19,253 bases of DNA, taken from NCBI RefSeq assembly GCF_003334335.1, contig NZ_QOWQ01000055.1; one strand, written 5' to 3'. The notes under the pieces were generated by a model. It did no database searches, was not told the origin of the DNA, and saw nothing but the letters and a program-made list of their open reading frames with translations. Shown in pieces: positions 8,479-11,251 of this stretch (its first letter is position 1; each line of letters starts with the position of its first letter). Source of the DNA: Escherichia coli (GTDB lineage: Bacteria > Pseudomonadota > Gammaproteobacteria > Enterobacterales > Enterobacteriaceae). The position numbers and the translations under genes are program-made.

Positions 8479-8521
8479 CTTACTGTAATAACATAATAAA
8501 TTACTATTGCGGAGAGATAAA

Positions 8522-9436
8522 ATGGCTGGTTTAAGGAATAACAACAACACACAGAATGCACAGTGGGCTGATTATGTGGGTGACATTCTTCGGGGGGCTC
8601 AGCCGATAAACCAGCTAGTACCTCAGCACCCTTATCTTAACGACGTCCCACTCATTGATGAGTTAAGGCATCAGAACACTCATCATGTTATTCCCTTGAC
8701 ACTTGATGTTGCAAAAAAAATACTCAGCCCAATAACATCATTTGATTACATTCATTTTATCACTACACATCCTTCAGGTATAAAAGATACACTCGCTTGG
8801 TTAGTTAACGCGGGTAAATTAATGACTGAGTTTGATGACAATGGGAAAATTATATTTAACCTTAATGCCTTAAAGTATACAAAAGCAAGTTACTTTGAAA
8901 TACTTGGAGAGAAATATATAAAAATCACAACATCCAGCCCCTGGCTTTTAGAAAAGCTCGGTAAATATATTTTCTCTTCACGAGCGCCTCAAGTTCTGGA
9001 ACTCGCTATTGGCTGGCGAGGAGCTTTATCTGAATCAATAAAAGGAGTTAAGTTCTGTATCTGGTTTTCAGTAGCCTGGAGAACCATAGAATTTATTATG
9101 AGTTCAGAGCGAGATCTGGTTAATTTTCTTGGCGATTTTTCAATGGATGTGGCCAAAGCAGTTATAGCCGGTGGTGTTGCAACCGCTATTGGAAGTCTGG
9201 CTTCTTTTGCCTGTGTTAGCTTTGGCTTTCCAGTAATTCTTGTCGGAGGAGCAATTTTACTGACAGGGATAGTGTGTACAGTTGTTTTAAATGAAATCGA
9301 TGCTCAATGCCATTTATCAGAAAAATTAAAATATGCAATTAGAGATGGACTAAAACGGCAACAGGAACTTGATAAATGGAAAAGGGAAAACATGACTCCA
9401 TTTATGTATGTTCTTAACACTCCACCCGTGATATGA
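8522..9436 (+). CDS. Hcp-linked 304-aa protein with soluble N-terminal domain and C-terminal small-xxx-small (glycine-zipper-like) transmembrane hairpin; likely the intact form of the yafU-type gene
   Basis: GGAGAG RBS 6 nt before ATG at 8522 (the track's 8507 start is a TTG). C-terminal hydrophobic segments VIAGGVATAIGSLASFACVSFGFPVILVGGAILLTGIVCTVVL. Position between hcp and ykfM matches where yafU sits in K-12 (from memory). Confidence 0.7.
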   Translation: MAGLRNNNNTQNAQWADYVGDILRGAQPINQLVPQHPYLNDVPLIDELRHQNTHHVIPLTLDVAKKILSPITSFDYIHFITTHPSGIKDTLAWLVNAGKLMTEFDDNGKIIFNLNALKYTKASYFEILGEKYIKITTSSPWLLEKLGKYIFSSRAPQVLELAIGWRGALSESIKGVKFCIWFSVAWRTIEFIMSSERDLVNFLGDFSMDVAKAVIAGGVATAIGSLASFACVSFGFPVILVGGAILLTGIVCTVVLNEIDAQCHLSEKLKYAIRDGLKRQQELDKWKRENMTPFMYVLNTPPVI

Positions 9437-9445
9437 GGATTAACC

Positions 9446-9925
9446 ATGCGTTTACATGTTAAATTAAAAGAGTTTCTTTCGATGTTTTTTATGGCCATAT
9501 TATTTTTCCCTGCATTCAATGCTTCTTTGTTTTTTACCGGAGTTAAACCTCTATATTCAATAATAAAATGCTCCACGGAAATATTTTATGATTGGAGAAT
9601 GTTGATTCTGTGCTTCGGTTTCATGTCGTTTTCCTTTTTAAATATTCATGTAATTTTACTTACGATAATAAAATCATTCTTAATCAAAAAAACGAAGGTA
9701 GTCAATTTCGCCACAGACATAACAATACAGCTAACTCTTATATTTTTACTAATAGCTATCGTAATAGCACCTTTAATAGCTCCTTTTGTCACAGGATATG
9801 TCAATACTAATTATCACCCCTGCGGTAATAATACGGGAATTTTCCCAGGAGCAATCTATATTAAAAATGGCATGAAATGTAATAATGGATATATTTCTCG
9901 CAAGGAAGATTCAGCAGTTAAATAA
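9446..9925 (+). CDS. ykfM: Small polytopic inner-membrane protein (159 aa), YkfM-like
   Basis: GAGG RBS; start 10 nt after the upstream stop; several hydrophobic helices; very AT-rich coding sequence; size and position match ykfM next to yafT in K-12 (from memory). Confidence 0.7.
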   Translation: MRLHVKLKEFLSMFFMAILFFPAFNASLFFTGVKPLYSIIKCSTEIFYDWRMLILCFGFMSFSFLNIHVILLTIIKSFLIKKTKVVNFATDITIQLTLIFLLIAIVIAPLIAPFVTGYVNTNYHPCGNNTGIFPGAIYIKNGMKCNNGYISRKEDSAVK

Positions 9926-10027
9926 TTAAATATTCTAAAACAAACAGTTTTTAACTCCGGATTCCATGTCCTTTCTTGCACTGTCTTTGTCAAGAAAAAT
10001 TTCTTATGCAAAGAATTTTGTATTATT

Positions 10028-10062
10028 GCCGCCAGAAATTCCTGGCGGCAGATATAATTTAT
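10028..10062 (+). terminator. Hairpin between convergent ykfM and yafT (probable bidirectional terminator)
   Basis: Stem gccgccag (10028-10035) / ctggcggc (10042-10049), loop aaattc, followed by a moderately T-rich tract. Confidence 0.4.
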
Positions 10063-10847
10063 TATTGATAGCGGTTAACCAAATCTTTTACCATCGCTTT
10101 ATAGGTCTTTTGCTTAAGTTGCATGATTTGCTGCTCTGTCATATCAGTCGTACTGGCTTCATTCTTGTCGGGCAATGGTGGAAGCACTTTATATTCATAA
10201 TTCACCGGCGACCAGGTAGCCCACTCACCTGTTGCCACATCCACCAGCGTGAAACGTACCAGGTAGCGCAGGGAGATAGCGTCAGTGAGTTTGTCATTTT
10301 TATAGTCGGACCATACTGTTGATTTCAGCGCAGAGTCATATTTTCCTGTCTGCAACATATCCTGGTAAACAATAATCGCTTTCTGATGTCCTTTTGCAGC
10401 CACAAAACGCAGTGCCTGCATCCAGTTCATATTCTCAGCACTGGCAACATCCTCGTTCTCATTTTTATCTTTGTTTTTGTTACAAGTCAGAGGCTTTTGC
10501 CTGTCCGGGATACCAGAGAATGTGGAAACAGTATAATATTTTCGCATCTCCTCCTGCATAATGGTTTCCGGTGCGCGGTTGCCGGATTGAACAAGTATTA
10601 CAGGAGAATTAAGGGGAACGCGGAACTCATCTCCATCAAGCGCAGCTTGAATATCCTCTTCGGATACGGCCAGAGTGGTTTCATTACCGAATAAATCTTT
10701 GTCTGTCAGTTGCTGGGGAGTGTTTTTATTAATATTACTTTGTGTGACTTGAGCTTTTTTCTTCTTTTCATCAATAGAAGATTCAGAGGCACATCCTGCA
10801 AGCAGCGAGAATAACACACATATGCAACAAAGCTTTTTTGAATTCAT
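10062..10847 (-). CDS. yafT: Lipoprotein YafT (261 aa)
   Basis: N-terminus [24 protein letters not shown] is a lipoprotein signal with lipobox LAGC; GAGGGAG RBS; size and position next to aspV match K-12 yafT (from memory). Confidence 0.8.
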
Positions 10848-11174: not shown

Positions 11175-11251
11175 TGGCGGAACGGACGGGACTCGAACCC
11201 GCGACCCCCTGCGTGACAGGCAGGTATTCTAACCGACTGAACTACCGCTCC
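11175..11251 (-). tRNA. aspV: tRNA-Asp (GUC), 77 nt with encoded CCA
   Basis: Reverse complement reads GGAGCGGTAGTTCAGTCGGTTAGAATACCTGCCTGTCACGCAGGGGGTCGCGGGTTCGAGTCCCGTCCGTTCCGCCA, the E. coli tRNA-Asp sequence as I recall it, with anticodon GUC in the loop. Confidence 0.95.

Follow-up and report, generated by a model that had tools for sequence, protein, structure and literature searches.

[quoted passage not shown] The gene order had been described correctly. The hcp (tssD) gene (positions 7996-8478, plus strand) encodes a 160-residue T6SS tube protein, identical to WP_001284199.1, that matched TIGR03344 (TssD/Hcp1) with an E-value of 2.1e-60 and 203 bits, the cut-off being 58.9, and is thus a full-length TssD. 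It is followed after 43 bp by full-length yafU (8522-9436, plus strand), coding for a 304-residue protein identical to RefSeq WP_000908066.1, and ykfM (9446-9925, plus strand), the 159-residue product of which is WP_001236645.1, starts 9 nt after the yafU stop codon. For yafU, the ATG at 8522, with a GGAGAG ribosome binding site about 8 nt upstream, is preferred as the start over the TTG at 8507, where the mechanically derived ORF begins.

A G+C-rich hairpin (10026-10051; 10-bp stem with 7 G-C pairs), detected by a consensus scan only, lies between ykfM and the convergent yafT (10062-10847, minus strand) and is a probable terminator closing the hcp-yafU-ykfM transcription unit. To the right of yafT are tRNA-Asp (11175-11251) and then, in this order, dnaQ, rnhA, yafS, gloB, mltD, yafE, yafD, yafC, and dkgB; the window comes from the aspV side of the chromosome. 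The G+C content is 38.8% for yafU, 30.6% for ykfM, and 38.5% for hcp, as compared to 56% for vasL and 50-52% for dnaQ and mltD, which bears out the earlier remark that the two genes are more AT-rich than the core genes (50-56% G+C).

Membrane segments of YafU and YkfM and the Tme/Tmi family

The sequence-only reading had described the first protein as a soluble N-terminal part followed by a hydrophobic hairpin rich in small-xxx-small motifs. In agreement with this, a Kyte-Doolittle scan revealed a sole hydrophobic stretch of 49 residues (213-261) in YafU, the N-terminal part being polar, and 6 of the 11 small-xxx-small motifs of the whole protein are located in residues 201-262. The hairpin (positions 9158-9304, plus strand), recognized from hydropathy and the helices of a structural model and ending at the conserved D260, is predicted to be the membrane-inserting part of YafU. 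Hydrophobic helices rich in such motifs are common to other membrane-targeting T6SS toxins, and YafU may resemble the glycine-zipper pore formers Tse4 and Ssp6 in this respect.

No usable match to either protein was obtained in Pfam and NCBIfam, XopF2 at an E-value of 0.13 and DUF6722 at an E-value of 2.8 being noise. The lead came instead from the DUF1240 gene beside homologs of YafU, since a full-text search for DUF1240 led to Fridman et al. 2020 (PMC7046647). [quoted passage not shown] An excerpt of Supplementary Data 5 of the same paper lists WP_000908066.1 with a Tme domain at residues 122-277 (E-value of 2.63e-36), WP_001284199.1 (Hcp) 43 bp upstream, and the 159-residue WP_001236645.1 9 bp downstream. 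The proteins of the window are identical to all three accessions, and the excerpt thereby carries both halves of the original proposal, the membrane-targeting effector and its polytopic, DUF1240-like partner. The opinion that the genes had no characterized role was mistaken, as the Tme family was named and characterized in 2020 with this accession in its table. The family, its mechanism, and the membership of WP_000908066.1 are thus already published, and there is nothing new in the identification. Literature searches on ykfM, yafU, and the accession retrieved only K-12 screens and unrelated uses of these words, and no experiment on the E. coli pair.

With the domain limits given in that excerpt, the Tme domain of YafU corresponds to positions 8885-9352 (plus strand), and the DxxK motif, the family hallmark as defined in PMC7046647, is D209-V-A-K212 (9146-9157, plus strand). 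YafU shows the motif order of the family, namely, DxxK, the hydrophobic stretch 213-261, and D260. The residues D209, K212, and D260 are invariant in 9 of 9 close homologs and at least 90% conserved in an alignment of 98 sequences of diverse homologs, the mean column identity of which is only 16%. The AlphaFold2 model of YafU has a mean pLDDT of 80.3; in the Tme domain it contains a beta-hairpin (residues 120-137) and helices at 165-193, 199-234, and 238-263, with block pLDDT values that are mostly 83-96 and lower around residues 141-170. The two long helices 199-234 and 238-263 span the hairpin region, whereas the Phobius prediction in the excerpted table has a single TM helix. Structure searches with YafU provided no tie to any toxin of known mechanism. 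A Foldseek search of AFDB50 retrieved family members only, including Vibrio parahaemolyticus proteins, under names such as "inner membrane protein YafU," "ImpA domain-containing," and "PAAR domain-containing." A pore-forming domain of the colicin or VasX type was also considered, but YafU did not resemble the solved structure of any such toxin domain.

A word-indexed search with YafU identified only 19 clusters (E. coli, Salmonella at 61% identity, Rahnella bruchi at 39%, and a few metagenomic ones), and a profile search of 1.84 billion representatives identified 701 clusters at an E-value of ≤1e-3, of which 345 were found at ≤1e-10. The conserved core of the 701 clusters comprises approximately profile positions 120-283, in agreement with the published domain limits. 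Among the longer matches, two (P0116 and P0127) have an N-terminal PAAR domain (E-value of approximately 1e-40), and two others (P0147 and P0178) share their N-terminal region with VPA1263, a MIX effector.

YkfM is a small polytopic membrane protein, as had been claimed, with hydrophobic stretches at residues 10-33, 52-81, and 85-121; the topology predicted in the excerpt of Supplementary Data 5 (PMC7046647) is i12-32o52-75i96-119o, which puts the C-terminal tail in the periplasm. Conserved in this tail are Y123, C126, G131, Y138, K140, and C145, and the pattern is invariant in an alignment with Pfam-positive DUF1240 proteins of Salmonella and Rahnella. YkfM itself gave no match to PF06836 (DUF1240) in Pfam even at an E-value of ≤10. 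Its homologs at 66% and 56% identity do carry PF06836, which is matched by one of the seven members of the YkfM alignment at ≤1e-3 and by three of the seven at ≤0.1, and in a BLASTP comparison YkfM matched a DUF1240 protein of Salmonella over the C-terminal third with an E-value of 5e-8. YkfM shares with DUF1240 and Tmi proteins a size of about 150 residues, three TM segments, the position right after a Tme gene, and the tail Y..C....G......Y.K....C, but it stays below every Pfam threshold and forms part of the divergent "DUF1240-like" fringe, which the authors of PMC7046647 tied to DUF1240 only through CLANS clustering and HHpred. Tmi proteins are encoded at most 50 bp downstream of the Tme gene and have 3-6 predicted TM helices, the corresponding values for YkfM being 9 nt and three segments. 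The putative role of YkfM as a Tmi protein rests on its homologs, position, and topology.

The experimental knowledge of the family stems from V. parahaemolyticus, where Tme1/Tmi1 and Tme2/Tmi2 are effector/immunity pairs of T6SS1, by which the two effectors are delivered. Tme1 and Tme2 are toxic in E. coli when targeted to the periplasm, whereas from the cytoplasm Tme1 is not toxic and Tme2 is much less so. They cause no cell lysis; the membrane potential is lost and propidium iodide enters, as is the case for VasX, which served as the positive control, and each is neutralized solely by its own cognate downstream Tmi. YafU has in common with these proteins the C-terminal Tme domain (DxxK, TM helix, and D), the association with a T6SS, the absence of a Sec signal, and a multi-pass DUF1240-like membrane protein encoded at most 50 bp downstream. 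The differences are that Tme1 and Tme2 are orphans, whereas yafU lies inside the main cluster right after hcp, and that the Vibrio proteins have been tested experimentally, whereas the E. coli pair is known from sequence comparison.

We conclude that yafU and ykfM are, with a probability of about 0.8, the Tme/Tmi pair that E. coli carries at its aspV-linked type i1 ("T6SS-2") T6SS locus, full-length YafU being the cargo toxin. Once in the periplasm of a rival, the Tme domain, with its DxxK motif, the hairpin 213-261, and D260, would insert into the inner membrane, and this insertion would cause collapse of the membrane potential and leakiness, as shown for Vibrio Tme1 and Tme2. The same outcome, in which the inner membrane is attacked from its periplasmic side and the membrane potential is lost, would be expected to be shared with other membrane-targeting T6SS toxins such as V. 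cholerae VasX. YkfM, which passes the inner membrane three times and ends in a conserved tail with two cysteines, would block its cognate toxin at the membrane by analogy with Tmi1 and Tmi2.

Decay of the T6SS island and exchange of its hcp end

The T6SS setting proposed by the sequence-only reading stands as far as the intact hcp gene is concerned, but it had gone unnoticed that the T6SS of this strain is a deletion remnant. According to the annotation of the near-identical strain EC416, positions 6061-7972 (plus strand) contain a C-terminal fragment of tssM (approximately 6061-6609) and an intact vasL/ImpA_N gene (6620-7972). The tssM fragment is abutted by an N-terminally truncated and frameshifted Rhs core pseudogene (approximately 1969-6050, minus strand), which is split into two ORFs, has a G+C content of 0.60-0.67, and has an ISAs1 element to its left. 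The order in the intact cluster, as found in strain MMC-J-0105, is tssH, vasI, tssA, tssM, vasL, hcp, yafU, and ykfM, and the full layout is present in O157 Sakai. The Rhs/tssM junction is a deletion scar, and the T6SS machinery genes between vgrG/rhs and mid-tssM have been removed. Rhs and tssM are both truncated where they meet, which leaves only a remnant of the T6SS, and YafU is not deliverable from this locus. The same arrangement is common to about 142 complete genomes.

K-12 was described in the sequence-only reading as having an intact ykfM and only a fragment of yafU, and this is the case. K-12 matches the window only from position 9080, that is, the last 357 nt of yafU (last 118 codons), followed by an identical ykfM; K-12 yafU is an annotated pseudogene that lacks the N-terminus and lies next to an ISAs1 remnant. 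K-12 is a later decay stage, in which the toxin was truncated by an ISAs1-associated deletion and ykfM was retained as an orphan immunity gene, and the 3' yafU stub together with the kept ykfM fits the earlier idea of a lost toxin with retained immunity. The window represents an intermediate decay stage of the aspV T6SS island, between the intact cluster and K-12. In a strain with such a remnant, the pair would persist mainly as a protection from kin cells that still possess a complete T6SS, and any current function would be limited to immunity.

Of 5426 complete E. coli genomes, 3092 contain the 2.2 kb around the pair (2544 at ≥80% coverage), and 43% lack the module. The ykfM gene was found at ≥80% coverage in 2998 of the 5426 genomes, and 2574 contain the 5' half of yafU; about 420 genomes would hence keep the immunity gene without an intact toxin, a figure that is biased by the many K-12 laboratory derivatives among them.

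A comparison with E. coli O157:H7 Sakai revealed a variable cassette at positions 8235-10193, which takes in two-thirds of hcp on its 3' side, all of yafU and ykfM, and the spacer, and reaches into the 3' end of yafT. The blastn homology to Sakai ends at 8235 and restarts at 10193, and the identity is 99.3% for VasL, 54% for Hcp, and 91% for YafT. Sakai has a different Hcp allele and, in the slot of yafU and ykfM, unrelated small genes, for which no credible family was found in NCBIfam. As the homology break spans the distal part of hcp through the cargo, distal hcp, cargo, and immunity gene are exchanged as one cassette, a pattern that favours a toxin that may be matched to its Hcp.

Delivery of YafU and alternative explanations

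YafU lacks a Sec signal and must therefore exit on the tube or the spike of a T6SS. Its loading would depend on the polar N-terminal part, above all on the first 45 or so residues, which are conserved, and the co-inherited Hcp allele would be the favoured carrier. These residues constitute a polar leader with the pattern W-DY-G--LRG--PINQL-PQHPY (8522-8656, plus strand), defined by alignment, by a second copy in Salmonella, and by a motif scan. Between paralogs whose overall identity is otherwise only 34-38%, the leader hardly differs, and it also heads the second, truncated copy in Salmonella. Secretion of Tme1 has been shown to require its first 60 amino acids, which are also sufficient for it, and toxicity does not depend on them (PMC10435454). 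By analogy, the YafU leader is a candidate delivery region, although the N-terminus of YafU is unrelated to the RIX leader of Tme1, RIX having been reported only in Vibrionaceae and Moritellaceae. No case was found of the YafU leader fused to a different toxin domain; there were only truncations and in-frame deletion products (e.g., P0059 and P0143), of which P0059 is a decay product with YafU residues 1-99 fused in frame to the YkfM tail. We tentatively propose, as a possibility against which the odds still stand, that the YafU leader is an undescribed enterobacterial T6SS delivery leader with a RIX-like role, matched to the co-inherited Hcp, and that hcp, leader-bearing toxin, and immunity gene move together as a single cassette that can be exchanged at the terminus of the type i1 cluster.

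With 304 residues and 34 kDa, YafU exceeds the small effectors that are carried inside the Hcp tube, and its large size for the Hcp lumen makes Hcp loading uncertain. The same toxin and immunity protein may instead be loaded onto the VgrG/PAAR spike, directly or via an adaptor, in which case the neighbouring hcp would reflect operon history only. Apart from its size, this would be in line with the PAAR fusions among the other family members, with Tme1, which relies on a RIX leader and not on adjacency to Hcp, and with some leader-bearing relatives that have no neighbouring hcp. Against it stands the joint exchange of Hcp allele and cargo next to a vasL gene that has kept 99% identity. Furthermore, in the E. 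coli part of the excerpted Supplementary Data 5 (PMC7046647), there are 1250 Hcp annotations versus 1254 mentions of E. coli, from which it follows that Hcp is upstream in nearly all E. coli rows of that excerpt. Outside E. coli, six gene contexts were inspected. A small downstream gene was present in all six and recognized as DUF1240 in five, and hcp was adjacent in three, namely, in Salmonella, in Rahnella, and in a third context, L013. The order in Salmonella is vasL, hcp, homolog, DUF1240, truncated second copy, second DUF1240, and yafT, whereas in Rahnella the yafU homolog is followed by the DUF1240 gene and then by a convergent orphan hcp. Taken together, spike loading has a modest chance of being the actual route.

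In the other three contexts, no T6SS gene was found within 4-5 kb. These three stand-alone pairs would also be compatible with a T6SS-independent membrane toxin and antidote of the addiction type, in which YafU would hit the producer's own membrane upon loss of YkfM and the adjacency of hcp would be incidental. The persistence of the pair in strains with a deleted T6SS points in the same direction, as does the increased killing of a K-12 ykfM::Tn5 mutant by nalidixic acid, the C-terminal yafU stub still being present in K-12. However, orphan effector-immunity pairs away from clusters are usual for T6SS cargo, and an addiction module would hardly account for the homologs fused to PAAR and MIX-type T6SS effector N-termini. 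It is also at odds with the survey of the family, in which both hcp and vgrG were present in 99.7% of the genomes with Tme and a T6SS gene preceded about 70% of the Tme genes (PMC7046647), and with the lack of toxicity of Tme1 in the cytoplasm and the delivery of Tme1 and Tme2 by T6SS1. This explanation is therefore considered very improbable.

That YafU and YkfM are accessory or housekeeping inner-membrane proteins without a toxin function, as their database names and the lack of Pfam/NCBIfam matches would have it (hypothetical protein and protein YkfM in RefSeq), can practically be dismissed, given that the module is missing in 43% of the complete genomes, that the otherwise near-identical O157 Sakai cluster has unrelated genes in that slot, that both genes are AT-rich relative to the core genes, and that the domain is common to PAAR- and MIX-fused effectors and experimentally toxic in Vibrio.

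Implications for K-12 annotation and competition assays

The finding does not reveal new biology, and its value lies in the annotation of two y-genes of K-12. In RefSeq, yafU and ykfM are still named "hypothetical," "inner membrane protein," and "protein YkfM," and they can be interpreted as the decayed gene of a Tme toxin and the gene of the Tmi immunity protein that K-12 has kept.

This annotation bears on the choice of prey in competition experiments. K-12 MG1655, the strain that customarily serves as prey when an E. coli T6SS is assayed in competition, encodes a YkfM that is identical to that of the window, and owing to this immunity protein an effect of YafU would probably be missed in such assays. 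In a 2023 study on enterotoxigenic E. coli (ETEC), cargo effectors were sought by means of their MIX, FIX, and RIX domains and none were found, and strains TW10722 and TW10828 were assayed against MG1655 as prey. Both ETEC strains carry the yafU-ykfM module. If the YafU leader is indeed a delivery region that travels with its Hcp in one cassette, the K-12 prey used against the ETEC type i1 T6SS would have been blind to YafU.

The deletion remnant and its Rhs gene

The T6SS cluster at window positions 1969-6609 is a deletion remnant, in which an N-terminally truncated Rhs core on the minus strand directly adjoins a C-terminal fragment of tssM. The Rhs reading frame is itself broken in the window, being split into two ORFs at 1969-3951 and 3984-6041. 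In the near-identical E. coli strain EC416, the interval corresponding to that from the start of the window to hcp is 7 nt longer. An AT-rich ORF of 130 aa on the minus strand (1599-1991), which overlaps the Rhs core at the latter's 3' end, carries the annotation "hypothetical" in EC416. From its position, it is a candidate for the gene that confers immunity to the Rhs toxin tip.

An ISAs1-family element occupies positions 1-1161, at the left end of the window, and in the K-12 locus the yafU stub is adjoined by what is left of another such element (L014 2225-2512). The presence of these elements at both sites suggests that the island eroded in a stepwise, ISAs1-associated manner, from an intact cluster through the state seen in the window to that of K-12. 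At the opposite end, a second tRNA-Asp(GTC) gene (19178-19254), which extends past the right end of the window and is followed in EC416 by the 5S and 23S rRNA genes, is ordinary.

Counterparts and decay products in other genomes

In E. coli O157:H7 Sakai, the slot that corresponds to that of yafU and ykfM (L007 5873-8014) lies 3' of a 54% identical Hcp allele and is filled by four small genes of unrelated sequence (ECs_0212 to ECs_0215). The products of two of them begin with signal-peptide-like N termini. No credible family for these four genes was found in NCBIfam, and they presumably represent a different effector/immunity set. In Salmonella enterica (L006 11586-13010), the first Tme/DUF1240 pair is followed by a gene for a 169-aa product, of which residues 1-68 are 57% identical to the YafU N terminus, and then by a second DUF1240 gene. 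This gene order is reminiscent of an array in which displaced toxin tips alternate with orphan immunity genes. Two other proteins, P0059 and P0143, consist of a Tme N terminus joined to a Tmi C terminus by an in-frame deletion; in P0059, residues 1-99 of E. coli YafU are fused to the tail of YkfM. These two proteins show that the Tme/Tmi pair decays recurrently.

The residual yafU of K-12

The part of YafU that K-12 retains, residues 187-304, contains the DxxK motif and the hydrophobic hairpin. A K-12 ykfM::Tn5 mutant was reported to be killed more readily by nalidixic acid, mitomycin C, and peroxide and less readily by SDS (PMC2824699). It is conceivable that a putative residual YafU toxin fragment is unmasked in such a mutant.
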